A stretch of DNA of 64,000 nt from Phenylobacterium sp. (GCF_036495085.1 NZ_DASXNL010000008.1:30015-94014); one strand, 5' to 3'. Shown: positions 2,598 through 32,421, counted from the stretch's first letter. Translations and numbers: made by a program. The notes: generated by a model from the sequence alone, not told the origin.

Positions 2598-3442
2598 GCG
2601 CCTCGCTGGAGAGCGAGGATCCGCGGGTGACCCCGATGCGCGATGGCATCGCCAGCCGCGCCCTGGAGGGGCTGGTCCGCGCCGAAGTCTACCTCGATCC
2701 CAAGATCATGAGCTGTGTGGTTCCAGCCGCCGGGATTCATCGCGCGCCGGACGTGGCGTCGGAACAGATGGACCAGATCCTGTTTGGCGAGACCTTCGAG
2801 ATCATCGAGGAAGAAGGCGGCTTCTTCTGGGGCCAGGCCAGGCGCGACGGCTATGTCGGCTTCGTCGTGGACGCATCGCTTGCGCCGCCGGGGCCGGAGC
2901 CGACTCACCGCGTCAGCGCTGTCCGCACCTACGCCTTCGCCGAACCGAGCATCAAGAGCCGGGCGAGCGGCCCTTTTTCAATGAACGCGCTGGTCGCCGT
3001 CGAGGCGCAGGAGGGGCGACTCAGCAAGGTGGCCGGTGGCGGCTGGACGACCTCCGATCACCTCACGCCGATTGGCGTGTTCGAGAGCGACGCTGCGGCC
3101 GTCGCCGAGCGTTTCCTAGGCGCGCCGTACCTTTGGGGCGGCCGCGAGAGCCTGGGCCTCGATTGCTCGGGCCTGGTGCAGCAGGCGCTGTTCGCCTGCG
3201 GTTTGGCCTGTCCCCGCGATGCCGACCAGCAGGCGCATATCGGACGGCCGATCGAGCGCGAGGCGTTCGGGCGTGGCGACCTGGTGTTCTGGAAGGGTCA
3301 CGTCGCGATCGGGCTCGACAAGACGCGCATCGTCCATGCGAACGGCCACCACATGATGGTCGCCGTCGAGCCGCTGGAGACTGCGATCAGCCGGATTTCC
3401 CGAGCCGGCGAAGGCCAGCCGACGGCGTTCCGCCGGCTCTAG
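2594..3442 (+). CDS. NlpC/P60 (C40) peptidase with N-terminal SH3-like domain
   Basis: PYLWGGRESLGLDCSGLVQ and GDLVFWKGHVAI catalytic motifs; GTG start overlaps upstream TGA. Confidence 0.9.
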   Translation: MSASLESEDPRVTPMRDGIASRALEGLVRAEVYLDPKIMSCVVPAAGIHRAPDVASEQMDQILFGETFEIIEEEGGFFWGQARRDGYVGFVVDASLAPPGPEPTHRVSAVRTYAFAEPSIKSRASGPFSMNALVAVEAQEGRLSKVAGGGWTTSDHLTPIGVFESDAAAVAERFLGAPYLWGGRESLGLDCSGLVQQALFACGLACPRDADQQAHIGRPIEREAFGRGDLVFWKGHVAIGLDKTRIVHANGHHMMVAVEPLETAISRISRAGEGQPTAFRRL

Positions 3443-7289: not shown

Positions 7290-7438
7290 GAGGAGCCCTC
7301 CGTGGCGACAGGATAGCGCCATCGAGCCGCGGCGTGGAGCGCGGCGGCGCGATCCCGCCCAAATGGATGCGGGTACGCTGCGATAGCGTCTTACCCGTTC
7401 ATCAGATTGAAATGATAGATGTTCACTTTTTGGCCGCA

Positions 7439-7454
7439 CGGCGTAATAGTTGCC
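7439..7454 (+). promoter_or_regulatory. Possible sigma54 -24/-12 promoter
   Basis: CGGCGTA-ATAG-TTGC has the GG-N10-GC spacing ~50 nt upstream of 7505; the -24 element deviates from TGGCAC. Confidence 0.35.
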
Positions 7455-7504
7455 TCGCTGGTGTGGTGACGGGCGCCGGCGAGTAAGTTTTTTGGGGGCG
7501 CCCG

Positions 7505-8701
7505 ATGCCTCAAGATGCTGCCACGATCAACCTGTCCGCCCTACGGGGGCCAGAGCTTCGGCGATTGCTCGACTCCTCCCGCGAACGCGGCCAGGCCGCG
7601 CTCTCCTATCAGATCCTGCAGGAGATGGCGTCGCGCCGCGAACGCCGCGAGAAAGGCGGGCCAAAGGCCCTCTTCACCGGGCGGCGGCCGGCCGAGCCGC
7701 GTGTAATCTCGGTCGACTTCAGCGATCCCCTGGAGCGCGAGAACGACGCGGCGCTGGATGATTTGCCGCCGCTCGCCGCCTGGCGCGCGCCGTCGTCTGA
7801 GCCGGACCCGGCCGCCACTCTGCGCCTGGAGACCGAGGCGCCGGCGCCTCGAGCATCGCGGCGAGCGGCCAAGCCACCGAAGCCCACAGCGGACCTGGGG
7901 GCAAGCCCAGAGCCCCCCGAGCCGCAAGAGGAGCCGCCGCCGCTGACCAATTGGGGGCCCTCGTCGCCCGAGCCGGACCTGGCTTCTCTCCAACTGGAGA
8001 CGCCGACGCCCGCCCGGCCGCCGCGCCGATCGCGCTGGCTGGCAGCCGGCTTCGCCGCCGGTATCGCCGCCGGCGTCGCCGTCGGCTGGTGGGGCGCGGC
8101 GCTAACCCGCGGAACTCCGCCCCTCCGTGTGGCCTCGGCCGACCCCGCAGCACATACCGCCACGCCGCCGGCGCTCAGGGCTGCGCCCGCAGCGGCCACG
8201 CCGGCCAATGCGGCAGTCGCCCCGATCGCCGCCGAGCCCGAGCCAATTCCCGAGGCTCCGTCGGACGCGACCGCCAGTTCTCCGCCGCCGGAATCCCAAG
8301 AGACGACCTCAGCGTTCCCGGCCGCGTCGGACGCGGCCCGAGACACTGCGGCCACTGCGACGGCGTCCCAACCGTCTGCTGCCGCGCCCACGCCGACAGA
8401 GGTTGTGAGGATCGCGCCGGCCGGCCCCAAGGGCTGCGCAGCCAAGCCGACCCCGGCGGACCGGACGATATGCGAGGTTCCGAAATTGCAACGTCTGCAG
8501 CGGGACCTGCAGGCGTCCTATGCCAAGGCGTTGGCGGCTCACGAGGATCGCGACCTGCTGCGCGAGCACCAGCTTGCCTGGCGCGACGCCCGCAATGACG
8601 TATCCGACCCCGATCGCCTGGCCCGTCTCTACGAGCAACGTATCCAGAAGCTGAAGGCGGCGACGGCCGTTGCGCGCCAGCAACGGGAAGCCCCCCACTG
8701 A
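7505..8701 (+). CDS. Single-pass membrane protein with Pro/Ala-rich linkers and C-terminal LprI/DUF1311-like domain
   Basis: TM WLAAGFAAGIAAGVAVGWWG; C-terminal C..KPT.ADRTIC..PKL..L..DL..SY..AL...Q.AW..ARN..LY..RI pattern. Confidence 0.65.
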   Translation: MPQDAATINLSALRGPELRRLLDSSRERGQAALSYQILQEMASRRERREKGGPKALFTGRRPAEPRVISVDFSDPLERENDAALDDLPPLAAWRAPSSEPDPAATLRLETEAPAPRASRRAAKPPKPTADLGASPEPPEPQEEPPPLTNWGPSSPEPDLASLQLETPTPARPPRRSRWLAAGFAAGIAAGVAVGWWGAALTRGTPPLRVASADPAAHTATPPALRAAPAAATPANAAVAPIAAEPEPIPEAPSDATASSPPPESQETTSAFPAASDAARDTAATATASQPSAAAPTPTEVVRIAPAGPKGCAAKPTPADRTICEVPKLQRLQRDLQASYAKALAAHEDRDLLREHQLAWRDARNDVSDPDRLARLYEQRIQKLKAATAVARQQREAPH

Positions 8702-17447: not shown

Positions 17448-17909
17448 ATGCCTAAGATCGAGGTCGAGGCGCTGGAGCTGCGCTCGGGGTGCAATTATCC
17501 GCCACCGTTTGCCGAGGTCTGCCTGGGCTCCACCTGGCGCAAGCTCGGCGACGCAGCCGATCTGACCGACTTCGGCGTGAACCTGGTGCGGCTGGCGCCT
17601 GGCAGGTGGTCGAGCCAGCGGCACTGGCATACCCACGAGGACGAGCTGGTCTACCTGCTGGCTGGCGAGGTGGTATTGGTGGAAAACGACGGCGAGCAGG
17701 TCCTGAAGCCGGGCGACTGCGCGGCCTGGAAGGCGGGCTCTCCGAACGGCCACTGCCTGCAAAACCATAGTGACCACGATGCGATCTATCTCGAGATCGG
17801 CTCCCGGCGGCCGGAGATCGACGCCTGCGACTATCCGGACATCGACATGGTGGCGCGGCCGATGGAACGCTTCTACCGCCACCGGGACGGGACGCCGTAC
17901 GAGCCTTAA
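17448..17909 (+). CDS. Cupin-domain protein (COG3837-like), copy 1
   Basis: FGVNLVRL.PG.WSSQRHWHTHEDE and NGHCLQN motifs. Confidence 0.88.
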   Translation: MPKIEVEALELRSGCNYPPPFAEVCLGSTWRKLGDAADLTDFGVNLVRLAPGRWSSQRHWHTHEDELVYLLAGEVVLVENDGEQVLKPGDCAAWKAGSPNGHCLQNHSDHDAIYLEIGSRRPEIDACDYPDIDMVARPMERFYRHRDGTPYEP

Positions 17910-17985: not shown

Positions 17986-18468
17986 ATGCCCAAGATCGAT
18001 ATCGACGCTGCGCCCACCCGCTTCGGCACAGGGTATCCGCCGCCCTATGACGCGCCGTGCCTGGATCGTAGGCGCTGGAAGCTTGGCGATGCGGCGGGCT
18101 TGACCCAGTTCGGAGTCAATCTGCAGCGGCTGGCGCCTGGCGTCTGGTCGAGCCAGCGGCACTGGCATACGGCCGAGGACGAGTTCGTCTGGGTGCTCTC
18201 GGGCGAGGTGGTGCTGGTCACCGACGAGGGCGAACAGGTATTGAAGGCGGGCGACTGCGCGGGCTTTCCGGCCGGCGCGCCCAACGGCCACCATCTGCAA
18301 AACCGCTCGGACGCCGAGGCAGTCCTGCTCGAAGTGGGCTCGCGCCGGGAAGCGGAGGACGGCTGCGACTACCCGGATATCGACCTGACGCTGGTCCCCG
18401 GCGAGACCGAGTACCGCCACAAGGACGGTACGCCGTACACGGACACACGAACGGCGCGAAGCCGGTGA
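17986..18468 (+). CDS. Cupin-domain protein (COG3837-like), copy 2
   Basis: SSQRHWHTAEDE and NGHHLQN; paralog of 17448-17909; RBS GGAGGG before ATG 17986. Confidence 0.88.
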   Translation: MPKIDIDAAPTRFGTGYPPPYDAPCLDRRRWKLGDAAGLTQFGVNLQRLAPGVWSSQRHWHTAEDEFVWVLSGEVVLVTDEGEQVLKAGDCAGFPAGAPNGHHLQNRSDAEAVLLEVGSRREAEDGCDYPDIDLTLVPGETEYRHKDGTPYTDTRTARSR

Positions 18469-20908: not shown

Positions 20909-21018
20909 GGGCGCGCCTGGCTCTTGGAACTTCGGAGCGCTCCGATAGCGGAGAGCGCGGCCCCTGTCACCTTTGCCCGGGCCTTGCTAAGCCTGCTTTC
21001 GAGACGCGGGGGCCGGGG

Positions 21019-21701
21019 ATGAGCACGCGTATTGCGACTGTTGTGACGGCGGCTGCGGCCGCCTGGACCTTGGCGGCGGCCGGCGCCGGGGCCGCGAGCG
21101 TGGCCGTGAGCGCCGACCGGCTGCTGGACGTGGCGAGTGGAAAATATGTCGACAAGCCGCGGGGGGTGATCACCGACGGTCGGATCTCGGCGGTGGAGCA
21201 CCAGGGCGAGGCGGTTCCAGCCGGCGCCGAGCCGGTCGACCTGCCTGGCGTGACGCTGCTGCCCCCCTGATCGACATGCACGTGCACCTGACGTCCTCGC
21301 CACTCTACGCCGGCTACAACCAGCTGCAGTTTACCGACAGTTTCTGGCCGAACATCGGCGCGGCGCACGCCAAGGCGACGCCCGAGGCCGGCTTCACAAC
21401 CGTGCGCAACGTGGGCTCCCAGAACTTCGACGACGTGGGCCTGCGCCAGGCGATCGACGCGGGGTATGTCCCAGGGCCGCGGATCGTGACGGCCACATAC
21501 GCCATCGGCTCGACCGACGGCCACTGCGACTCGACCTTCTTCCCCCCGTCGATGAAGCAGAAGGGCGATGCGGTCATCGACAGCCCCGACGCCGGCCGAC
21601 AGATGGTCCGCCAGCTCCACAAATACGGCGCCCAGGTCATCAAGATCTGCGCCACTGGCCGGCATTGGGTAGCAGACACAACCAAGCCGACGCGCGCGTA
21701 A
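21019..21701 (+). pseudogene. Frameshifted and truncated secreted amidohydrolase (Xaa-Pro dipeptidase-like)
   Basis: Signal peptide and VDLPGVTLLP in one frame; (L)IDMHVHL..AGFTTVRNVG..GPRI..GHCD..IKICATG in another (1-nt loss in CCCCCC at 21262-21267); homology stops at ~21660, C-terminal half absent. Confidence 0.85.
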
Positions 21702-22033
21702 TTTACTGCTCATCCTTCAGCGTTGGGCGGGGGCGGTCGGTCGCCGGCACTGCCCGCCGACCGCGACCGGTTGTGACTGAGGCTGTGTGGAAACGCGCAG
21801 GCTAGGTCGAACGCGGTCTTGCGCTGCACGCCAACAACCCGACATTCCCAAGGTCAGTGCAGGGTGGTTTTCCATCGTTCGGAACGCCGCTTTCGGCGTT
21901 TCTCGGCATCGGCTTTTAGCCGGACAATCCCTTTGTCGCCGCTTCGCATGACCTCGGCTTGACGGCAAAGCTTGAAGAGCGCGCAATGGTTGCGTCCGAT
22001 CCAAATACAGCGCAGGCGGCAGTAGGGGCACCG

Positions 22034-22627
22034 ATGATACGACGAGTGATGACTTGGGGCCCGGTGGTGGGAACGGTCGCGGCAGGGACCCTGCTGATCG
22101 GCGCCGAGCCTGTCACGCCTAGGCCCTTCCCGCCCTTGCCGGTACCGCCCATCCCGCACCAGGCCGTGCCGCCATACCTCGCGCGGATCACAATTTCCGG
22201 CGATGCCAAGATGACCGGCGTGTTCGAGAGTTGCGTGGACCCGGCGGCGATTATCAGGACCGCGCAGGCGCGGGCGAAGGCTCGAGCGGCGGATGCGCCG
22301 TCGCCTGTAGCCGGGTGCAGCCATACGAGCGAGGTGCGGGCGGATGGCTCCGTCCATACCGAGATGAGCTGCGACCGGGCGAAGGGCGCGAACGCCAGCT
22401 TCCGCATGATCAGCGATGGGACGCCGAACGACCTGCGCATGCATTTGGAGCGGTACGAACCCGCGACGGGGGCTCCGAAGACGACCATCTCCGACAGCCA
22501 CATCGTCCGCCTGGGGCCGTGTCCAGCCGACCTTGAGCCAGGCCAGATGCGGCGGCCCGGCGGGTCCATCATCGACAGGGGCGAGGCGGCGCGGCTTCTT
22601 GAGGACGCCCGAGGCACGGCTCCCTAG
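22034..22627 (+). CDS. Secreted hypothetical protein, DUF3617-like
   Basis: N-terminal hydrophobic segment, four spaced Cys, terminal ..RLGPC.. pattern typical of DUF3617; start uncertain (21959/22034). Confidence 0.55.
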   Translation: MIRRVMTWGPVVGTVAAGTLLIGAEPVTPRPFPPLPVPPIPHQAVPPYLARITISGDAKMTGVFESCVDPAAIIRTAQARAKARAADAPSPVAGCSHTSEVRADGSVHTEMSCDRAKGANASFRMISDGTPNDLRMHLERYEPATGAPKTTISDSHIVRLGPCPADLEPGQMRRPGGSIIDRGEAARLLEDARGTAP

Positions 22628-22654
22628 GGAGCGACACCCTGTCCGGCCGCATTG

Positions 22655-22747
22655 GGTCGTCAGCACGCTTTGGCTTCCTGCCCGAAACTTGCCGTTCACG
22701 GGGGTTGGCCGCCGGTTAGCTGAATGTCTCGAATCCGGCGCCATCCC
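22655..22747 (+). repeat. ~93-bp intergenic repeat, copy A
   Basis: Hand alignment gives ~72/93 identity to 25641-25732 (shared GGTCGTCAGCAC, TTGGCTTC..GCC.G.AACTTGCC, AGCTGAATGTC, GAAT.CGGCG.CATCCC). Confidence 0.85.
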
Positions 22748-22773
22748 GGCGGCAGCTCGTGGCGCGTCACGGC

Positions 22774-23286
22774 CTACAGCCGTCCAGCCGCCTTTAGTGA
22801 AGCTTCGATCTCGGGAAGGGACCGAAATAGCAGATACGGATCGGACGGAGAGGACAGGAAGCCGTGCCGTTTCCAGAACTCGATCGCCTCCTCATCGATG
22901 GCCCGCACCAAGACGGCGCGCCCGCCGGTAAGACGAGCACCGAGCACCGCGCGCTCCAGCGCATGGCCGAGGAGAGCTGCGCCGAGACCATGGCCGGCGT
23001 AGGCCAGGTCAATCGCGAGCTGCCCGAGCAGCAGACAGGGTATGGGGTTCGGAGGCTGGCCGGTCCGGATTTTCCTCGGCAGGACTGCGGCCTCGATGGC
23101 GGTCGGCGACAGCCCGTAGTAGCCGACGACCCGCTGCTCATAGTGAACGACGACAACCACGGTGAAGCCGTTCCGTTGGTTCGCCACTGCGCGGCTCTTC
23201 AGCCACGCGTTCAGCGCGGGCTTGCCGCAGTCGAAGCTTGTGAGGTCGTGGTTGGAGGTAAGGACCTCGGGCGCGGAGAACGACAA
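22774..23286 (-). CDS. GNAT acetyltransferase toxin (TacT/AtaT family)
   Basis: FDCGKPALNAWL, VVGYY.L, PIPCLLLGQLAID..YAGHGLG..LL, AIEFWKRHGF. Confidence 0.92.
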   Translation of the reverse strand: MSFSAPEVLTSNHDLTSFDCGKPALNAWLKSRAVANQRNGFTVVVVVHYEQRVVGYYGLSPTAIEAAVLPRKIRTGQPPNPIPCLLLGQLAIDLAYAGHGLGAALLGHALERAVLGARLTGGRAVLVRAIDEEAIEFWKRHGFLSSPSDPYLLFRSLPEIEASLKAAGRL

Positions 23287-23547
23287 CTACTGTTCCCAGG
23301 GCGTCCGGCGCTTCAGTAGCTCCACCATCTCAGGCACGGCCGCTGGTGACGCATCGAGGGCGGCCTTGAACGCTTCGAAATCAGCGGGATCCAATCGGAC
23401 AACCGATTGTTCCAGCAAGACCTCTTCAGCGGCTCGTACGGCGGCCTCGCGCACGAAGTCGGTCCGCGAGCGGCCGCGCAGATCGGCTGCTCGGTCGATG
23501 ATCGCCAGGTCCTGTTCCGGCAGGCGCATGGAAAGTGGCGTGGTCAT
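23287..23547 (-). CDS. DUF1778 RHH antitoxin (TacA/AtaR family)
   Basis: LSMRL....IIDRAADLRGRSRTDFVREAA..AAEEVL..Q..L...DFEAF.AALD. Confidence 0.92.
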   Translation of the reverse strand: MTTPLSMRLPEQDLAIIDRAADLRGRSRTDFVREAAVRAAEEVLLEQSVVRLDPADFEAFKAALDASPAAVPEMVELLKRRTPWEQ

Positions 23548-23569
23548 CGGACTACCTCCAGGGCCCTAA

Positions 23570-23599
23570 ATTAGTTTGATGTAGCGCATTTTGCAATAC
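23570..23599 (-). promoter_or_regulatory. TA promoter with palindromic operator
   Basis: Minus strand TTGCAA-N17-TAATTT; palindrome GTAnnGCA-N3-TGCnnTAC (23581-23599) overlaps -35; RBS GGAGG downstream. Confidence 0.65.
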
Positions 23600-23785
23600 G
23601 GACCGGGGTCCGGGCCATGGCTTCAGCCTGCGCGCCGCTGAAGGACTGTGCGAATGTCGGGTTGCTGCACATGATCCAATTTCCGCTTGTGGCGCTAAGG
23701 AGCTGAGGGCGCGCGGCCTGTCTTGTCTCAAGCTGAGGCGTTGGCCGATGTCGCTGGAGTTTGAGACTCCCTTTATGCCTGCGAT

Positions 23786-24727
23786 TTGGGGCCGCGATCG
23801 ATGCGGATCGCGAGACGACAGCAGGATCAACTCGTGACGGTCAGAACAACGCCGCGTAGAGCATCGCCGGCCAGGCCGATGAAGGTTCGCGATCGGGCTT
23901 TCGATCTGCACAAGACCGGGGTCGAGCGGTTTGACTGGCGCGACCCGTACCACGTGGCCGTGACGATCTCCTGGCCAGTATTCGCCGGACTCGCCTTTGG
24001 CGGTCTGCTCGCGCTCAATGCGGTTTTCGCGGGGCTTTATGTGCTCGAGCCGGGAGCCGTCCAGAACCTGCCGCCAGGCGACCTGGCCCGGGCATTCTTC
24101 TTTTCGCTCGAGACGCTAGCCACCGTGGGCTACGGGGAGATGGCGCCCCAGAGCCTCTATGGACACTCCGTGGCTGGGATCGAGATCGTGGTGGGCATGG
24201 CCTGGGTCGCGATCTTCACGGGCCTGCTGTTTGTCCGATTCTCCCGTGCTCAGTCCAAGATCCTGTTCGCCGACAAGATCGTGGTCGCGCCCCACAACGG
24301 CGCGCCAACGCTCATGGTCCGGATCGCCAACGGCCGCATGACCATGCTCACGCACGCCTCGGCCCGCCTCACAGTCTTGATCCCGGAGATCTCATCGGAA
24401 GGCTATTCGTCGCGGAGCGTTCATGACCTTCGGCTGGTGCGCGACAACATGCCCATCTTCCCGCTGACCTGGACAATGATGCACGTCATCGACGAAACCA
24501 GCCCGCTCCGCGGGCTCGGCCCCGATGAGCTCCGCGCGAAGGATGTGCGTCTATTCCTTACGGTGGAAGCCCGCGACGCCGCCCTCGGTCAAGTCGTGCA
24601 GGACCTCGCCGCCTTCCGGCCACACCAGATCGCGTTTGACCGTCGGTACGCGGACGCCGTTACCGTCGATGAACAGGGGCGCACCGCAGCCGATATTTCG
24701 CTACTGAGCGAGTTGGTCGAACTATAG
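23786..24727 (+). CDS. Inward-rectifier (KirBac-like) K+ channel
   Basis: FFFSLETLATVGYG filter, two TMs, GLLFVRFSR, LMVRIANGR, WTMMHVIDETSPL; start uncertain. Confidence 0.93.
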   Translation: MGPRSMRIARRQQDQLVTVRTTPRRASPARPMKVRDRAFDLHKTGVERFDWRDPYHVAVTISWPVFAGLAFGGLLALNAVFAGLYVLEPGAVQNLPPGDLARAFFFSLETLATVGYGEMAPQSLYGHSVAGIEIVVGMAWVAIFTGLLFVRFSRAQSKILFADKIVVAPHNGAPTLMVRIANGRMTMLTHASARLTVLIPEISSEGYSSRSVHDLRLVRDNMPIFPLTWTMMHVIDETSPLRGLGPDELRAKDVRLFLTVEARDAALGQVVQDLAAFRPHQIAFDRRYADAVTVDEQGRTAADISLLSELVEL

Positions 24728-24836
24728 GCGGACGCCCCCCACGCCGTGAATGTCCGGATGTTGGAGGAGCTGCAAGGTCCGAAACTGGCGCTGAGCTGCC
24801 GTCCGGCCCTCAATAATCAGCGCCACCGGGGCAGGT

Positions 24837-25268
24837 TTAGTCTCGCGTCGCTAGGTTCTTTCCGGTGGGGTGTAAGGCCAGAAACGCCTTGAGGATCTGG
24901 TTGAAGAAACCCGGAGGCACGAAGCCATAGTCATAGCGATCCTTGCGGGCGACTTTCCTGAGATCGTACCCAGGCCACAAAAACTCGTTGCCCTCCGTAA
25001 CGACCACCCAAGAGCGCTGATCGTCCAGCCCCAAGTGACGCTTGACCGGTGCAGGGATCTCGACCGCTCCGCCTGGGATGGTCGGGGCGCTGTGCGTGAT
25101 CGGGAGCACGGTGACGACCGTCGCGCCGTCCGCTTCACGATCTACCGCCAAGACGATCACGCTCGGGCGATCTTTGAGCCCCTCGTCTTGTCCGGCTTGG
25201 TGCTCGCGGCGCCAAAGATAGGCGTAGGCGATGACGAGGCCCGTCTCCGGGGTAGGGATCGTCGCCAT
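24837..25268 (-). CDS. PemK/MazF-like toxin (divergent alphaproteobacterial family)
   Basis: G.VI.YAYLW..E..G.DEG.KDRP.VIV, VTVLPITHS.P, HLGLD..RSWVV..E.N.F.WPG.DL. Confidence 0.7.
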   Translation of the reverse strand: MATIPTPETGLVIAYAYLWRREHQAGQDEGLKDRPSVIVLAVDREADGATVVTVLPITHSAPTIPGGAVEIPAPVKRHLGLDDQRSWVVVTEGNEFLWPGYDLRKVARKDRYDYGFVPPGFFNQILKAFLALHPTGKNLATRD

Positions 25269-25277
25269 GCGGCGGGA

Positions 25278-25550
25278 CTATTTCGGGTCGAGTAGGGCGT
25301 CGAGATGCGCGTGGCGGGGGTCCATACGCGATCCAGCAATCGCTCTTACCTTTTCGTCCGATAGCTCAGCGGTCGCGAAGCTTTGGCGCTGCTCTCTGAA
25401 GCGCCTAAATTCCTCGTAGTCATCCGGTCCAATAAAGTAGCCCGTGACCTGGCCATGGCTCGACACGGCTACGACCTCTCGCTGAGCCTGCATCCGATAG
25501 CGACCAAAATTTCGGGTGAACTCTGAGGCGGGTACTACTGTTGCTGCCAT
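25278..25550 (-). CDS. Phd/YefM-type antitoxin
   Basis: VPASEFTRNFGRY..AQREVVAVSSHG..TGYF..PDDYE Phd-like N-terminus; directly upstream of toxin. Confidence 0.8.
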   Translation of the reverse strand: MAATVVPASEFTRNFGRYRMQAQREVVAVSSHGQVTGYFIGPDDYEEFRRFREQRQSFATAELSDEKVRAIAGSRMDPRHAHLDALLDPK

Positions 25551-25581
25551 CGGGACACTTTCCTCTCGCGCCTCTTAATAT

Positions 25582-25612
25582 GCGTCAATTACGCGATTTA
25601 CGCAAGTTACGC
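25582..25612 (-). promoter_or_regulatory. Probable TA operator: 3 x TTACGC at 9-bp period plus one inverted half-site
   Basis: TTACGC at 25589, 25598 and 25607; GCGTCA at 25582. Confidence 0.6.
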
Positions 25613-25640
25613 GGGTATGCGTTGATGGAAGAACTATACC

Positions 25641-25732
25641 GGTCGTCAGCACAAATTGGCTTCTCGCCGGGAACTTGCCATCGACGGCGCGAGCCGCCCG
25701 GCAGCTGAATGTCTTGAATTCGGCGGCATCCC
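25641..25732 (+). repeat. ~92-bp intergenic repeat, copy B
   Basis: Direct repeat of 22655-22747. Confidence 0.85.
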
Positions 25733-25749
25733 AATGGCCGCTCATGGCG

Positions 25750-25969
25750 GATTGTGTTGAAAAACTCCATTTTTGGCGACCGCCCCCGAAATTCCGGGCC
25801 TCTGGCGGGACGTTTGAAATCGGACGCGGGGGACACCGTGCGAAATGACGCTGAACCCCTCAGTGCTCATCCCAGTTCGAGCACGGCGGCATCAATTGCT
25901 GATTTGGCGTCGCAAGCTCATTCAGGCCAATTTTTGAAGCCCCCGATTTCGGGGTTTATCAGCACAATC
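25750..25969. mobile_element. 220-bp MITE (non-autonomous, IS1182-like ends)
   Basis: TIRs GATTGTGTTGAAAAACTCC / GGGGTTTATCAGCACAATC (16/19 complementary), flanked by GGCG direct repeats (25746-25749, 25970-25973); no credible ORF. Confidence 0.8.
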
Positions 25970-26027
25970 GGCGCAGAGCGCTCATTGCGCGGTTGGCAAC
26001 CATGACAGGATCGACCGCGCTTGACCG

Positions 26028-27734
26028 TTACTGCCAGTCCAACAAGCGCCGGCGCCTGTCGGCCTTCAAAGTGGCCAAGGCCTTGTCGTAGGCGTTGAGT
26101 TTCGCAGAATTGGCCTCCTGGCGGGCAAACACCTTGTCGCCAAACTCCATCACCTGGCGGGCCTTCGGGTCATAGGTTGGCCACGTCGCAAGCCCCGGCC
26201 CGTTAGGGTCACCGGTCTTGACGAACCGCACCCAGGCCCCGCTCATCGCGGCCCCGAGGGCTTGGTCCGTGGCGTCTAACCCACTGATTTTCATGGATGG
26301 GTGTGCGAAGTTGTCGAGCGCGTAGACCATCTCGCTGGAATGGAAGCTACCGGCGATGGGGGGCAACCCGAAGACCTTCCAGGTGGCCCGGGTGAATTCA
26401 TAGCGCCAGACCGGCTGGTGGTGGACAGACATCGCGCGGGCGGCCGATCGCGCGCTGGCGACGAGGAGCCAATCGGTCACATACCGGATCGCGGCTGGCT
26501 GCACCTCGGCGTCCTTGGTCGCCGGATATAGCGACAGCAGAGTGTCGGAAACGGCGGGATAGCGGCGCTGTGCGAAAACGCGCCAGTCCTCGACCGTCTT
26601 GATCGGCATGCCAAATGAGAAGACCGAGCCATCGTCGGCGGTCGTGCCGACGAGCAGCGGAACCCGCGCCACCTTCCCCGCGTCGAACAGCGTCATCGGC
26701 TCGTCGGGCAGAACGTGACCATCGACGATCGGCCAGAATTCGATGCCCCGGTCAGAGAACTGCAGATCGGTCCGGACCTGAGCCTTCGCCAGCAATTCAG
26801 CCGCCGACAAGTGGCGCAGGGCCTCGATATCGGCGCCCACCGAAAGTCCTTCAGCCTCGGCCGACCGTAGACCATAGGCCGGCTCGCGCAGGTGCTGCTG
26901 CGGATACCAGACATAGCCAGGGCTTTCGCTGATCCCAGACCGGAACAGCCCTTTCGCCAGCGGCGAGGCCATCAGGTAGAGCACGGACACTCCGCCGGCG
27001 GAACAGCCCATGATCGTCACCTTCTTCGGATCGCCGCCGAAGGACGCGATATTCGCCTGAACCCATTTCAGGGCGGCGATCTGGTCGAGCAGACCGTAGG
27101 CGCCCGACGTGCCGGAAGGATCCTCCTTCGACAGCGCCGGATGCGCCATGAAGCCAAACACTCCGAGTCTGTAGTTGAAGCTCACGACGACGACGCCGCG
27201 TCTGGCCATCGCCGCCCCGTCTTCGGCGGGGAATGCGCTGCTGCCGCCGAAGAAACCGCCCCCGGGGATGTCCACCATGACGGGAAGCCTCTCGCCCGCC
27301 CTGTGTGGCGGCGACCAGACATTCACCGTCAGGCAGTCCTCGCTGACGTGGGTGAGGTCGGTTGGCGGCCCCGGCGCGGGGCCCTGCATGCAGGGCGAGC
27401 CGAACGCCTCGGCCTTCAGGACGCCCTTCCAGCCGGCCGCCGGCTGCGGCGGGCGCCAGCGCAGCCGTCCGACCGGCGGCGCGGCGAACGGGATGCCCTT
27501 GAAGGTCGCGACCCCGTCGACGTCCAGCCCCGAGACCTCGCCTGAGCGGGTCACGACGATCGGCGACCGGGCCTCGGCCGGCAGCGCGGCCGCCACGGAC
27601 GCCAGAACGAAACCGCAGATGCTGGCGACGGCGCCCAGTCGCCCGAGCGGCGACCGGGTCACGGCCCTGTGATATGACTCGGACGAACCGCGGGGCGAGG
27701 GGTTTGGGGCTAGTGCTTGCGAAGATATCGGCAT
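26028..27734 (-). CDS. Secreted type-B carboxylesterase/lipase (pNB-esterase-like)
   Basis: FKGIPFAAPPVG.LRW, SEDCLTVNVW, GGGF.GGS, NYRLG.FGF, DQIAALKWV..NI..FGGDP, GCSAGG nucleophile elbow; start uncertain (27734 or GTG 27662). Confidence 0.92.
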   Translation of the reverse strand: MPISSQALAPNPSPRGSSESYHRAVTRSPLGRLGAVASICGFVLASVAAALPAEARSPIVVTRSGEVSGLDVDGVATFKGIPFAAPPVGRLRWRPPQPAAGWKGVLKAEAFGSPCMQGPAPGPPTDLTHVSEDCLTVNVWSPPHRAGERLPVMVDIPGGGFFGGSSAFPAEDGAAMARRGVVVVSFNYRLGVFGFMAHPALSKEDPSGTSGAYGLLDQIAALKWVQANIASFGGDPKKVTIMGCSAGGVSVLYLMASPLAKGLFRSGISESPGYVWYPQQHLREPAYGLRSAEAEGLSVGADIEALRHLSAAELLAKAQVRTDLQFSDRGIEFWPIVDGHVLPDEPMTLFDAGKVARVPLLVGTTADDGSVFSFGMPIKTVEDWRVFAQRRYPAVSDTLLSLYPATKDAEVQPAAIRYVTDWLLVASARSAARAMSVHHQPVWRYEFTRATWKVFGLPPIAGSFHSSEMVYALDNFAHPSMKISGLDATDQALGAAMSGAWVRFVKTGDPNGPGLATWPTYDPKARQVMEFGDKVFARQEANSAKLNAYDKALATLKADRRRRLLDWQ

Positions 27735-27831
27735 GGGTTGGCTCCGCCTTGAGGGTGGAAGGACTCGCCGGCCACAAAAGCCCGGCCGCGCCGCACCGTC
27801 GCGGACGGCGCGATGACCGATCGCCGACCTA

Positions 27832-29796
27832 TTGCCGATGAGCGCCGACCTTTTCGTGCGCGGCGTCGAGTTGGCCGGTGAGCCCGACTTCCATCTCGGC
27901 GCGCTCTTCGTGCGGCCGTCGCGGCGCGAGATCGAGGTTGGCGGGCAGGCCGAGAAGCTTGAGCCGCGCGTCATGCAGGCCCTGGTGGTGCTGGCGGCCA
28001 ACCGCGACCGGGTGGTCTCCCGTGACCAGCTGATCGAGTCCTGCTGGGATCGTCGTATCGTCGGCGACGACGCCATCAATCGGTGCATGGCCAAGGTGCG
28101 GCGGGTCGCTCGGGCCCATGGCGGCTTCACCCTGGAAACCGTGCCGCGGGTCGGGTATCGGCTGAGGCTCGCGGCGCCGGGGGCGACGGCGGCCAAGAGC
28201 CGTCGGCTGCGCTGGGTGTGGCCCGCCTCCGTGGTCGGCGCAGCCCTTGTGCTCGCTGCCCTGGGTTGGTTCATGTGGCGTGGTGGCGCCACCCCGCTGA
28301 CGGCGGATAGCCCAGTCGCGATCCGGTCGTTCCAGTCCGTCACGACAGACGCCGCCGCCCGCGTTTTTGCGGTCGGCGTGGCCGACGACACCGCGGGCCT
28401 GTTGACCGAAAACGGCATCGAGATCGTGGCCGTCGACAGCCGTCGGCCACACCTTGAGATCGAGGGAACTGTCAGCGCTGACGCCGGCCGGCTGCGCACC
28501 AGGGTTCGCTTGCGCGATCCTCGGGCGGACGCGATTTTGTGGTCGGAGGAATTCACCGCTCCGACGTCCGAGGCGGCGCGCCTCCGCTTCGAAACCTCCT
28601 GGCGCCTGGTCGCCGCCGCGCAGACGGCCCGCGAGCTTCTTCGTGACCGCAGCCGCGACCTGGATTCCGTGGCTCTGGGGCTGGCGTTACAGACGCTGGA
28701 CTCCGCCCAGCAGTCGAGTTGGAAGCCGCTCAGCACGGCCGACGCGCTGGTGCGCCGCGCGCCGCTTTATGCGCCGGGTTGGGCCCTTCACGGCATGGTC
28801 CGGTTGGTCGAGTCCTCCTACGCGTCCGAGCCAGAGGCTGAGGCGTTGCGCCGGCAGGGGGTGGCCGACGCCCAGCACGCGCTCTCGCTGCGGCGCGACT
28901 TCGGTCCCGCCTACGGTTTGCTCGCCCTGGCCACACCGGTTCGGGACTGGACGGAACGCGCGCGCTTGCTGGAAAAAGGCCTGGCCCTCGCCCCAGGCCG
29001 CCTCAGCTCTACCATGGCCGACTTCCTGTCGAATAGCGGTCGCGTCGAAGACGCTCGGATGCTGAGCGAGCAGATCCTCGAGCGTGGACCCTCCCAGCCC
29101 GCCAACGCCGGCCAGGCTGTCGAAATTCGGTATCTCCGCGGAAGGACTCACGATGCGCAGGCCGGTGTCGACCGCTACTTGCCCATGCGCCCAGCCGACG
29201 CCAGCCTCCGGACGGCGGGGCTCGCTGTGGCCGTCCTGGCCGGAGATCCAGACCAGGCCCTGGCCATCTTGGGCGACCCGGCGCGCCGGCCGATCGACTT
29301 CACGGCGGAGACCCTACGCGCGACGACCGGCTTCGTGAATTGGCGGAAGTCCCAGACCGCGTCCGATCGCGAAGCGGCCCGCGCGGCGATCATGGCCGCC
29401 ACCGGCGCGCGCGGGCTGCAGCCCGGCCTGGCCGTGCAGATGCTGAGCGCTCTGCGCGAGATCGACAACGCGTTCGAGGTCGCGGATCGCTACGCTCAAG
29501 ATAGGCGGTTCCAGCGCCTCTATGGCCTGTCTCGGATCGGATTCCTATTCGGGCCGGCGACCGCGCCCCTCCGCGAGGATCGGCGGTTCGTCGACTTGGC
29601 GCGAACGCTGGGACTGCTGGACTACTGGCGGTCCAGCGCCCGCTGGCCCGACTTCTGCGAAAGCGAGCCGCGCTCGGTCTGCGCGGCTATGCGGGCCGGT
29701 CCTTCTGCTGGCCGCGCACCAGCGTCTTCCGTAAGCCGGCGCCCGCCGCAGCTGGAAATTCACCGCCGCCCGCGAACCGCGACCGCTCCCAGGTGA
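27832..29796 (+). CDS. CadC/ToxR-like winged-helix transmembrane regulator with TPR-like C-terminal domain
   Basis: LEPRVMQALVVLA...VVSRDQLIE.CW..IVGDDAINRC..KVRR..LETVPRVGYRL wHTH, one TM, helical repeats. Confidence 0.85.
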   Translation: MPMSADLFVRGVELAGEPDFHLGALFVRPSRREIEVGGQAEKLEPRVMQALVVLAANRDRVVSRDQLIESCWDRRIVGDDAINRCMAKVRRVARAHGGFTLETVPRVGYRLRLAAPGATAAKSRRLRWVWPASVVGAALVLAALGWFMWRGGATPLTADSPVAIRSFQSVTTDAAARVFAVGVADDTAGLLTENGIEIVAVDSRRPHLEIEGTVSADAGRLRTRVRLRDPRADAILWSEEFTAPTSEAARLRFETSWRLVAAAQTARELLRDRSRDLDSVALGLALQTLDSAQQSSWKPLSTADALVRRAPLYAPGWALHGMVRLVESSYASEPEAEALRRQGVADAQHALSLRRDFGPAYGLLALATPVRDWTERARLLEKGLALAPGRLSSTMADFLSNSGRVEDARMLSEQILERGPSQPANAGQAVEIRYLRGRTHDAQAGVDRYLPMRPADASLRTAGLAVAVLAGDPDQALAILGDPARRPIDFTAETLRATTGFVNWRKSQTASDREAARAAIMAATGARGLQPGLAVQMLSALREIDNAFEVADRYAQDRRFQRLYGLSRIGFLFGPATAPLREDRRFVDLARTLGLLDYWRSSARWPDFCESEPRSVCAAMRAGPSAGRAPASSVSRRPPQLEIHRRPRTATAPR

Positions 29797-30019
29797 AGCC
29801 ATGGGTCGAGGCTCGGTCGCCGAAGTCCGGAAGCCGAAAGCCGCACTCTCCCAAGTTCCGTCATAGGGTCGAAAGCCGCCATCCGCTGACCCCAGCGAGT
29901 GTCCGCTTCCTGGAGGTGAAGAATGGTCCGGAGGTGGCGCGGTGCAGCCATATCGACGGGCGTTCGCCAGGGCGAGGTAGATAGCTGACGGAGAACGTCG
30001 CTCGCTAAGCGCGGCGTGG

Positions 30020-31669
30020 ATGCTAGGATCGGAAGGGGTGTGCGCAGGGGGCAACTTGTATTCGGTCCATCTCGATCAGGCCTGTTTCCCAGCTCAGGCC
30101 GACGACGCCGTTCTCGAAACCACCGTCGGCGGGGTCCTGCGTGCGCGCGCCGAGGCTTCGCCGAGCGCCGAGGCGCTGGTCGAAGCCGATATCGCTGGCG
30201 TGCTCAGGCGGCGCTGGACCTATGCCCAATTGCTGGCTGACGCCGAACGGTTGGCCCAGGCGCTGTTGTCGCGCTACCGCCCCGGCGAGCGGATCGCCGT
30301 CTGGGCTCCAAACATCCCAGAATGGGTGATCCTGGAGTATGCCGCCGGCATGGCCGGCCTGGTGCTGGTGACCGCCAATCCGGCCTATCGCCCCCGCGAA
30401 CTGCAATTCGTGTTGGAGCAGTCCCGCGCGGCCGGCCTGTTCATGGTCGGTGAGTACCGCGGCAATCCGATGTCGGCGATCGCTGCTGAGGTCGCAGCCC
30501 AGGTCCCGGCGCTGCGTGAGGTCATCGACCTGGAGGACGCAGCCGCCCTCTACGCCGGCCATGATCCCTCCATCGAGCTGCCTCAGGTGAAGCCGACCGA
30601 CGCGGTGCAGATCCAGTACACTTCCGGCACAACCGGCTTTCCGAAGGGCGCGGTGCTGCACCACCGCGGCATCACCAACAACGCCCGCTTCGGCCATCGC
30701 CGCTACGGCGCACGCGAGGGCGAGACCTCACTCAACTTCATGCCGATGTTCCACACCGCCGGCTGCGGGATGGCGACGCTGGGCGCCTGCCAGGCGGGCC
30801 TGCGGATGATTCTCGCCAAGCTGTTCGATCCGCCGCGGATGCTGGACATCATCGCGGCGGAGCGGGTGGACATCAGCCTCGGCGTGCCGACCATGCTGGC
30901 GGGCCTGTTGGAGGCCCAGGCCATCCAGCCCCGGCATCTCAGCTCGCTGCGGCTGATGGGATCGGGTGGGTCGATGGTGCCACCGGAGCTGATCCGCCGC
31001 GTGCGGGCCGAATTCAACTGCGAATTCCAGACGGTCTATGGTCAGACTGAGAGTTCGCCGCTTCTCACTCAGACCCAGAGCGATGACGCTCTGGAAGACG
31101 TCTACACCACCGTCGGACAGCCTCTCCCGCAGACCGAAATCTCTATCCGCGATCCCGGGACCAACGCCGTCATGCCCGTGGGCGCAGTCGGCGAGATCTG
31201 CGCCCGGGCCTACGCCGTGATGCTGGAATACAACGACGATCCCGAGGCCACCGCCAAGGCCGTGGACGCCGACGGCTGGCTGCACACCGGCGACCTCGGG
31301 ACGCTCGACGCCCGGGGCTATCTGAAGGTCACGGGGCGGGTGAAGGAGATGATCATCCGGGGCGGCGAGAACTTGTTCCCCGCCGAGATCGAGAGCGTTC
31401 TCCTTGAGCATCCGGACGTAGCCGAGGCGGCCGTGGTCGGAGCACCTGACGAGCGCTGGGGCGAGATAGTCCTGGGCTTCGTGCGGCTGACGACGGGCGC
31501 CGAGCTGGACCGGGCGGCGCTGATCGCCCATTGCCGCGAGCGCATCTCGCCGCAGAAGACCCCGGCCCGCTGGATCGTGGTCACCGATTGGCCGCTGACC
31601 GGCTCCGGCAAGATCCAGAAGTTCGTTCTGCGCGACCGCTTCGTAGCCGGCGAGTTCGAGGTGGTTTAG
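30020..31669 (+). CDS. AMP-binding acyl-CoA synthetase
   Basis: YTSGTTGFPKG, YGQTE, GWLHTGDLG, KEMIIRGGENLFPAEIE, GSGKIQK. Confidence 0.95.
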   Translation: MLGSEGVCAGGNLYSVHLDQACFPAQADDAVLETTVGGVLRARAEASPSAEALVEADIAGVLRRRWTYAQLLADAERLAQALLSRYRPGERIAVWAPNIPEWVILEYAAGMAGLVLVTANPAYRPRELQFVLEQSRAAGLFMVGEYRGNPMSAIAAEVAAQVPALREVIDLEDAAALYAGHDPSIELPQVKPTDAVQIQYTSGTTGFPKGAVLHHRGITNNARFGHRRYGAREGETSLNFMPMFHTAGCGMATLGACQAGLRMILAKLFDPPRMLDIIAAERVDISLGVPTMLAGLLEAQAIQPRHLSSLRLMGSGGSMVPPELIRRVRAEFNCEFQTVYGQTESSPLLTQTQSDDALEDVYTTVGQPLPQTEISIRDPGTNAVMPVGAVGEICARAYAVMLEYNDDPEATAKAVDADGWLHTGDLGTLDARGYLKVTGRVKEMIIRGGENLFPAEIESVLLEHPDVAEAAVVGAPDERWGEIVLGFVRLTTGAELDRAALIAHCRERISPQKTPARWIVVTDWPLTGSGKIQKFVLRDRFVAGEFEVV

Positions 31670-31689
31670 GTCGTCTGCGGCGCATTTCC

Positions 31690-31712
31690 GTCCGCTTGGG
31701 TCGCTAGCGGAC
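31690..31712. repeat. Perfect copy of palindromic repeat family
   Basis: GTCCGCT-TGGGTCGCT-AGCGGAC hairpin at right edge of accessory region. Confidence 0.8.
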
Positions 31713-31782
31713 GCAGAGGAGAGGCGGCATAGAGTCTGCGCCTGGCGGCCTGGGGCCTTGGCCTTCGTCGGGACGAGGGGAC

Positions 31783-32421
31783 CTAAACCGAACAGGCCGC
31801 GACGATCTCGGCGCGGAGTTCAGGGATACCCAGGCCCTTCTCGGCGGAAGTGGCCACCACGCGGGGGAAGGCGGCGGGCCGTTTGGCGATGGCGGCGAGC
31901 GTCTTGGCGGTGACCGCCTCGACCTCCGAGGCCTTCAGCTTGTCGGCCTTGGTCAACACGATCTGGTAAGAGACCGCAGCGACGTCGAAGGCGTCGAGGG
32001 CCTCCTTGTCCACGTCCTTAAGTCCGTGGCGGCTGTCGATCAGCAGAAAGGCGCGCTTAAGGTTCGGCCGGCCTCGCAGATAGTCGCGACCGAGGTTCTG
32101 GAACTTCTTCACCTCGCCCCGTGAGGCCCGCGCGAAACCGTAGCCCGGCAGGTCGACCAGCCTGAGCCTGCCGTCGGCGACGAAGAAATTCACCTCTCGC
32201 GTGCGGCCCGGCGAATTCGAGGCCCGCGCCAGGTGCAGGCGCCCGGCCACCGCATTGATCAAGGTGCTCTTGCCCACGTTGGAGCGGCCGGCGAAAGCCA
32301 CTTCCGGCAGATCGGCGGGGGGGAGGCCGGCGATGTTCACCGCCCCCATCATGAAGCTGACCTCGCGAGCGAAGAGGACGCGGGCCGCCTCCAGGGCGTC
32401 GGCGTCGAAGACCTCTGTCAC
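31783..32421 (-). CDS. engB: Ribosome biogenesis GTPase EngB/YihA
   Basis: [23 protein letters not shown]; GTG start overlaps yidC stop. Confidence 0.96.

Follow-up and report, generated by a model that had tools for sequence, protein, structure and literature searches.

Short intergenic repeats of the MITE-like (miniature inverted-repeat transposable element) and mosaic kinds, among them Correia/NEMIS, ERIC, RUP, the bacterial interspersed mosaic elements (BIMEs) and the Rhizobium intergenic mosaic elements (RIMEs), have been reviewed (PMC2229807, PMC3184786). The CcrM-associated intergenic repeats (CIR elements) of Caulobacter and Brucella are ~110 bp long (Chen & Shapiro 2003, via PMC2229807), and the passage that PMC2229807 devotes to them gives as their features GANTC sites that are conserved, an RNA fold with two arms and strong conservation throughout the Alphaproteobacteria. 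Integrons and attC-site clusters without an integron integrase (CALINs) are reported to be absent from this class, an absence called "extremely puzzling" (PMC4889954), and toxin-antitoxin (TA) cassettes stabilise sedentary chromosomal integrons (PMC4889954, PMC13108822). Here we describe a locus in a 64,000-nt stretch of DNA from Phenylobacterium sp. (GCF_036495085.1 NZ_DASXNL010000008.1:30015-94014; hereafter the window), in which two direct repeats, L and R, enclose exactly five genes: a TacA/TacT-type TA pair, a KirBac channel gene and a Phd-like/MazF-like pair. The original prediction took this arrangement for an excisable unit of ~3 kb, its single cargo gene guarded by two addiction modules, or for the footprint of successive cassette insertions that duplicate the site. 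We find that L and R are members of a new, uncatalogued dispersed intergenic repeat family of one alphaproteobacterial genus, with no match in Rfam. We place a probability of roughly 60% on the reading that the 3-kb stretch consists of three juxtaposed blocks in a mosaic island, with the seams bearing these dispersed repeats and the blocks joined by recombination or MITE-like spread.

L and R belong to a dispersed intergenic repeat family

L (22655-22764) and R (25641-25749) are direct repeats of ~110 nt, real where they had been predicted and extending slightly beyond (to 22764/25749). A repeat search of the window gave two ungapped blocks, 22655-22701/25641-25687 (79% identical) and 22708-22764/25693-25749 (81%), which are shifted by one base and thus reveal a 1-nt indel between the two repeats. 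In a MAFFT alignment, the similarity was continuous from 22655 to ~22764; 84 of 111 columns were identical (75.7%, so that an earlier hand count of 72/93, or 77%, was about right), and the longest identical run was 12 nt. With L as query against the whole 4.5-Mb assembly, R was matched at E = 1e-15. The end of L lies 9 nt from the stop codon of the GNAT toxin gene of the first TA pair, and R starts 90 nt upstream of the start codon of the Phd-like gene. The same arrangement was recovered at 99.7-100% identity in independent metagenome contigs from at least three samples, and it is therefore not an assembly artefact.

The outer ~45 nt of the repeat are common to many further intergenic sites. 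Iterative nhmmer searches defined a module of ~57 nt with the consensus GAAGGTCGGGTTCCGGGCGTGAAGCCAAGGACCGCTCGCGACCCCGTTGCGGACCTT, which occurs singly or as head-to-head inverted dimers. The source assembly contains 19 copies at nhmmer E < 1e-3, and 26 by R1, a sequence-only Infernal model built from this genome's copies (alignment A2). L and R are the two best-preserved, same-oriented dimers of the mosaic island, both head-to-head inverted with their tails outward. With its outer tail included, L spans 22638-22764 (R1 41.9 bits, E 4e-12, and an nhmmer match); its first half lies on the minus strand at 22638-22703, tail outward, and its second half on the plus strand at ~22721-22764, the latter assigned by homology to the second half of R and by the GCTGAATGTC motif. 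The halves of R lie at 25641-25689 (minus) and 25705-25746 (plus) and reach R1 scores of 30.5 bits, at E 1.5e-8, and 10.4 bits, at E 0.03, respectively; its outer tail is shortened or diverged. A third full copy, C135:2404-2515 on another contig of the assembly, is 86.5% identical to L and 68.5% to R, so that L resembles this copy more closely than it resembles R. A partial copy lies 1.6 kb beyond it, with an MFS transporter gene between the two.

Copies form arrays with spacings of 0.1-2 kb on contigs C135, C47, C103, C23, C137, C176 and C8. Terminal inverted repeats of ~21 nt are clear in the better-preserved dimer C135:4012-4161, whose fold beats that of shuffled sequences (z -2.7); the copies in the window still show the dimer architecture, in degenerate form. 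Of 61 genomes of the genus, 56 gave an R1 match at E <= 0.01; these hold 1-16 copies per genome, frequently at distances of 0.1-5 kb from one another. Because R1 was built from the copies of one genome, these counts are biased low. Among 150 genomes of other genera of the class, isolated weak R1 matches (E 1e-4 to 1e-3) appeared in eight, and the family is essentially limited to the genus among the samples examined. A plain DNA search of 60 relatives recovered no copy, and the family surfaced only with profile searches. Comparison of the C135 array with five relatives gave gene-level homology only, on scattered contigs, and was uninformative on the elements; a metagenome pattern scan for the second half of the repeat gave no matches, with near-identical records possibly outside the scan.

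The elements are heterogeneous, with a mean column identity of 53%, and their strand order is mixed (-, -/+, +, -/+, - in the window; -, -/+, +, + on C135). No consistent orientation of the module relative to neighbouring genes was found: roughly one strong copy in two stands 45-190 nt upstream of a gene in the same orientation, and the others face convergent gene ends. Such placement, together with genus-wide conservation at low copy number, might be expected of a functional cis element (a nucleoid- or regulatory-protein site, insulator, promoter or terminator) that is selected beside accessory genes and has no role in mobility, its position at block edges merely reflecting its intergenic location. 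The copies upstream of co-oriented genes, several of which precede small membrane-protein paralogues, fit this explanation, but those at convergent ends do not. Furthermore, no fitting sigma-type spacing, conserved RNA structure or Rfam match was found, the Phd/MazF-like pair has, in other genera, a conserved upstream region of its own that lacks the repeat, and the exact junctions described below would be left unexplained. We regard a purely cis-acting role as distinctly improbable.

Several other identities for the repeats were considered and set aside. As a coding remnant, L and R would need a consistent reading frame common to both copies, and none runs across the indel; as a tRNA-derived attachment (att) site they would stand in a window without any tRNA. 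Membership of a known RNA family was dropped because neither the repeats nor contigs C135 and C47 gave any Rfam match at E <= 1. A structured RNA or hairpin was dropped after single-stranded DNA folds of L and R, on both strands, were no better than shuffles (z -0.3 to +0.4) and RNAalifold found no consensus pairs across 19 module copies. A likeness to the inverted repeats of the Tn3 family covers only the first ~8 nt (GGGTCGTC), and the copies here are direct, so the idea was dropped. Sigma-32 or extracytoplasmic function (ECF)-type promoters were rejected on unfit motif spacings and on the half of the copies that face convergent genes.

Three observations concern particular copies. The small membrane-protein paralogues (MDIHKPKPW...) at C174:~70730, C176:~580, C11:~1400 and L052:~920 each have a co-oriented module ~60-75 nt upstream, which may represent a block travelling with its own element or a regulatory use of the module. 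On C47 (L022), two module copies 0.5 kb apart (7375-8167) lie directly downstream of a tRNA gene (8108-8167, minus strand) that is cut by the contig end; tRNA genes are classical insertion points of islands. Also, a tyrosine-recombinase-like fragment (C103:5021-5116) lies in a stretch of low third-codon-position GC ~2 kb from the C103 module array (2222-2990, 3283-3320).

The enclosed genes and the junctions of their blocks

The five genes between the repeats are as originally described, the last pair on sub-threshold matches. The first pair comprises a 170-aa GNAT acetyltransferase toxin of the TacT/AtaT/KacT type (22774-23286, minus strand; Pfam PF13508 and PF00583) and, directly upstream and abutting it (23286/23287), an 86-aa TacA-type ribbon-helix-helix (RHH) antitoxin (23287-23547, minus strand). 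The toxin matches PDB sequences over residues 1-160 at E 2.7e-32 to 8e-18, including 7ak7 (1e-28), 5fvj (5e-25), AtaT (6gts) and KacT (5zgn); the antitoxin matches PF08681 TacA1 at E 2.8e-20 (72.5 bits, cut-off 21), and RHH_1. By sequence, the two genes are predicted to form a type II TA system of the TacAT (GNAT/RHH) type. The channel gene (23879-24727, plus strand) encodes 282 aa as annotated in public contigs, or 313 aa if read from a TTG at 23786. Its product carries a two-transmembrane pore (PF07885 Ion_trans_2), a T-x-G-Y-G selectivity filter, read as TVGYG in the translation, and the inward-rectifier C-terminal domain (PF17655 IRK_C, 1.3e-16), both families above cut-off, and it aligns over residues 14-274 with KirBac1.1 (1p7b; E 3e-66) and also matches KirBac3.1 at 1e-52. 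These features predict a KirBac-type inward-rectifier K+ channel (Kir).

The third block consists of a 143-aa putative toxin, distantly MazF/PemK-like (24837-25268, minus strand), and a 90-aa putative Phd/YefM-like antitoxin (25278-25550, minus strand) encoded 10 nt upstream. The 143-aa protein does not reach the PemK/MazF family threshold (PF02452 E 0.0065, 17.1 bits against a cut-off of 23.1), and NCBIfam, PADLOC and PDB sequence searches gave no match. An AlphaFold2 model made from an alignment of homologues reached a predicted local distance difference test (pLDDT) score of 63, and a Foldseek search with this model returned MazF structures for all of the top ten PDB hits, at E 4e-3 to 1.4e-2 and TM scores (target) of 0.55-0.66. 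The 90-aa protein matches PF02604 at E 4e-4, below cut-off, and the 89/90-aa plus 143-aa pair recurs with identical 10-nt spacing in unrelated contexts of other alphaproteobacterial contigs. Naming it a Phd/MazF-like TA pair is reasonable but not proven. Homologues of the 143-aa protein number at least 1388 at E < 1e-5; among the 120 listed, identity is 69-86% and no Pfam domain is on record. Conservation of the pair is high among Alphaproteobacteria from soil (Pseudolabrys, Stellaceae, Rhizomicrobium), and this very large unannotated family is a by-product of the analysis. Elsewhere in the genome, the MazF-like gene has a paralogue of 43% identity, of which there is also a broken copy (C22:4177-4581, C68:16170-16402). 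The sequence upstream of these two copies (89-92% identical) also opens metagenome contig L049, beside TacAT, so that TA pairs co-localise in another strain too.

The three blocks each occur independently elsewhere. Two contigs from other samples, L048 and L052, are 99.1-99.4% identical to the window over TacAT and L; both remain identical through ...GCTGACGACCC and then diverge at once, in the outer tail of L (22651-22654). Beyond this point L048 continues with a PAS-domain gene and L052 with a small membrane-protein gene, and the L052 continuation resembles the C176/C174 family copies and their downstream gene, as expected from a crossover within the module tail. In a third contig, L049, the TacA gene lies beside an alpha/beta-hydrolase gene, and similarity to the window ends at 23686-23700, in a degenerate module copy between tacA and Kir (23647-23696, plus strand; R1 17 bits, E 2.7e-4; outside the set used for the model). 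TacAT thus has three alternative flanks in metagenome contigs, with the breaks inside the module. On the other side of L, homology of the neighbouring DUF3617-like gene with its C23 paralogue (83%) and with another genome, G244 (78%), stops at 22629-22650, at the start of L.

The Phd/MazF-like pair is 76-81% identical in DNA to loci in other genera, which carry no element of the family, and this homology, which with L074 covers window positions 24868-25611, ends 30 nt before R. In one genome scan, the nearest Kir homologues were 35-58% identical (69% over a short segment at one locus) and came from other alphaproteobacterial lineages; their neighbourhoods in 13 other genomes contained no TA genes and no repeat. 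A KirBac channel behaving as an accessory gene is a second by-product. To the right of R, the block of a carboxylesterase and a Trans_reg_C regulator (26019-29742; esterase 26028-27662, minus strand; regulator 27838-29796, plus strand) is 88.6% identical to G244:C131, in another species and in a different array. That array reads patatin, element, Abhydrolase_2, element, HxlR plus SDR, element, esterase plus regulator, element. No variant junction at R was found in the contigs or genomes examined, and exact-protein look-ups with the DUF3617, GNAT, Kir, both Phd/MazF-like and regulator proteins returned further contigs that were all collinear with the window; the esterase was not on record.

These data bear on the proposal that the whole 3-kb segment excises and integrates by L x R recombination, its repeats arising from duplication of the insertion site. 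The repeats are direct and enclose exactly the five genes, and the left outer end is a real breakpoint, all of which such a unit would show. The repeats are nevertheless members of a dispersed family, L is closer to the C135 copy than to R, a family copy lies inside the supposed unit, and TacAT occurs without Kir in L049. No empty site, with DUF3617, a single repeat and the esterase, was found in 86 genomes of the genus or in contig look-ups, no recombinase domain is present among the island genes scanned, and no variant junction marks the right side. Deletion by RecA between L and R should be rare, because their longest shared identical run is 12 nt. We consider an excisable unit highly improbable, and the picture of a single cargo gene under the guard of two addiction modules is corrected accordingly. 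Successive insertion at a recurring site comes nearer to the evidence, in that the breakpoints in L048, L052 and L049 coincide with the repeats. Of the two grounds named for refuting the original prediction, the lack of an empty-site allele thus holds in the genomes and contigs covered, but a lack of relation between repeats and breakpoints does not.

The surrounding island and the assembly of its blocks

The L-R stretch is nested in a lineage-specific island of 10.1 kb (21663-31782) between argB and engB. In blastn comparisons with three genomes of the same genus, synteny extends as far as 21662 and is found again from 31783 onwards. Between argB and engB, the closest relative (G031) carries an intact 425-aa amidohydrolase gene (L036:5093-6370) and nothing else, and in G036 argB adjoins engB with nothing between. 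The island, across which synteny is interrupted, thus took the place of the amidohydrolase gene's 3' part, and L and R lie inside it. The island's blocks are DUF3617, TacAT, KirBac, the Phd/MazF-like pair, the esterase-regulator block and an acyl-CoA synthetase.

Within the window, the module is concentrated in this island. The six best R1 matches of the entire window, obtained with filters off (E 4e-12 to 0.03), lie without exception in intergenic gaps inside 21663-31782; three of them were not part of model building, and all other window matches have E >= 0.085, which is noise level. Module copies occupy five of the eight gene gaps of the region, with noise-level traces in two more. In addition to L, R and the copy between tacA and Kir, one copy lies between the amidohydrolase stump and DUF3617 (21805-21850, minus strand; R1 18.8 bits, E 7e-5; nhmmer E 0.044), and a partial copy lies between the regulator and the acyl-CoA synthetase (29847-29882, minus strand; R1 14.2 bits, E 0.002).

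Taken together, the island offers a clear example of a small flexible region built from independently circulating blocks. On the reading that we favour, the repeats would be the junctions at which blocks join and exchange, most likely by recombination between dispersed copies or by MITE-like insertion followed by rearrangement, possibly with the help of some trans-acting enzyme. By analogy with the TA cassettes of chromosomal integrons, the two self-promoted TA pairs would persist since their loss is costly, and the neighbouring channel gene would be stabilised incidentally.

Several points weigh against this interpretation. The family has no linked recombinase or transposase. Target-site duplications were not recognised, none being convincing by eye in the absence of a systematic search, and no transposase-sized open reading frame (ORF) flanked by a module pair appeared in the neighbourhoods listed, again without a systematic search. 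No circular or deletion junction was seen in the contigs and genomes examined. Since intergenic DNA is where repeats and breakpoints alike would be expected, their coincidence is partly trivial, and the exact junctions are the three of TacAT only. The variant contigs, short assemblies of 1-2.4 kb from metagenomes, could be chimeric exactly at repeats. Furthermore, E-values are rough, the R1 counts from other genomes suffer from the bias noted above, and the weak window copies (E 0.002-0.03) rely on position as much as on score.

The junctions could also be read as the product of a dedicated, integron-like cassette exchange unrelated to integrases, in which the module is the site and a trans-acting recombinase cuts its conserved tail (CGACCCC/GTTGCGGAC). 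One- or two-gene blocks would then move between arrays, and TacAT, Kir and the MazF-like pair would be three cassettes. All three exact junctions fall in the same ~20-35-nt module tail, arrays of element-separated blocks occur on several contigs and in several species, TA pairs are typical of cassette arrays (PMC13108822), and the copies are too dissimilar for RecA to recombine them efficiently. Set against this are the mixed orientation within arrays, the heterogeneity and low copy number of the elements, the lack of a conserved hairpin, and junctions that are recorded as exact for a single block. The arrays have no candidate enzyme linked to them, and the genome yielded no integron integrase: the best TIGR02249 match scored 79 bits against a cut-off of 265, in an assembly that is 95.6% complete, so that the absence is not absolute. 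The TIGR02249 matches presumably represent Xer-like recombinases. We judge dedicated exchange of this kind unlikely, and quite unlikely the further conclusion that the genus possesses, in the integron's role, a repeat-delimited block-exchange system with a ~57-nt site, a CGACCCC-GTTGCGGAC tail and some enzyme to act with it. If the junctions should prove site-specific, the family would become a candidate integron substitute in a class reported to be without integrons (PMC4889954).

The remaining features of the region surround these blocks. To the left of L, the DUF3617-like gene (21959-22627, plus strand) is an independent block. To the right, a second, unrelated MITE-like repeat (25750-25990) abuts R, and the gap between R and the esterase block exists because this repeat occupies it; blastn found further copies on C21, C32, C28 and C171, including C21:51183-51298 (87% over 121 nt) and C32:9616-9703, which there too lies beside a module copy. 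Outside the island, dapE, cupin genes, dapD and argB lie to the left, and an engB-type GTPase gene (31783-32421), yidC, rnpA and rpmH to the right. The amidohydrolase gene beside argB (20991-21701) is a pseudogene, in which the Amidohydro_1 part (21276-21701) lies in another frame than the signal-peptide-like N-terminal part (21019-21270) and from which the 3' ~640 nt of the intact 425-aa ORF are missing. The cupin-domain genes between dapE and dapD (17541-17840 and 18079-18378; 300 nt, 73% identical) are tandem paralogues.

Comparison with known systems

Two of the three blocks resemble well-described systems closely. The predicted TacAT pair agrees with TacAT, AtaRT and KacAT in a toxin that matches the solved TacT, AtaT and KacT structures end to end, an antitoxin of the TacA1 family, and an antitoxin-first order with abutting genes; nothing in it is unusual, and it is known here from its sequence. 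The channel is like KirBac1.1 and KirBac3.1 in its full-length match to 1p7b, its pore helix, TVGYG filter and IRK_C cytoplasmic domain; it differs from them in being an accessory gene here, with homologues found without TA neighbours.

The repeats differ from the duplicated att sites of an integrase-mediated islet, in that the island genes scanned include no recombinase and L-R identity (75.7%) is lower than L-C135 identity (86.5%). They share with CIR elements, as these are described, the ~110-nt length of the L/R dimer, the intergenic position and the absence of an ORF. The same description sets them apart: GANTC occurs once in L (GAATC, 22731-22735) and is replaced by GAATTC in R and GAACCC in the C135 copy, with none in the module consensus; no fold is conserved; and the family is barely found outside the genus. 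REP (repetitive extragenic palindromic) sequences and BIMEs are built from GC-rich palindromes of ~35 nt, number hundreds of copies and have a REP-associated tyrosine transposase (RAYT), whereas the module is 57 nt long, is not a stable palindrome and has 19-26 copies.

With integron cassette arrays and CALINs, the family shares short repeats between small accessory blocks, blocks that recur in different arrays, and promoter-bearing TA pairs. The attC sites of integrons are imperfect palindromes that form single-strand hairpins with R''/L''-L'/R' boxes (AAC...GTT cores); here, by contrast, there is no IntI, no attC-type hairpin and no R''/R' core. The module tail reads CCCC(G/A)TTGCGGAC, not GTTRRRY, the orientation of the module in the window and on C135 is mixed, and the blocks have regulators of their own.

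In its workings the family most resembles the mosaic intergenic repeats of the MITE, BIME and RIME type. It departs from them in being of low copy number (1-26 per genome), heterogeneous and clustered in accessory arrays, not genome-wide; most copies, including L and R, lack a significant hairpin, and no cognate transposase was recognised. Its likeness lies in small size (57-150 nt), a non-coding and strictly intergenic nature, and a multi-copy, modular build from single modules or inverted dimers. Like these repeats it may act as a rearrangement junction, and one copy, the C135:4012-4161 dimer, shows ~21-nt terminal inverted repeats and a fold at z -2.7.

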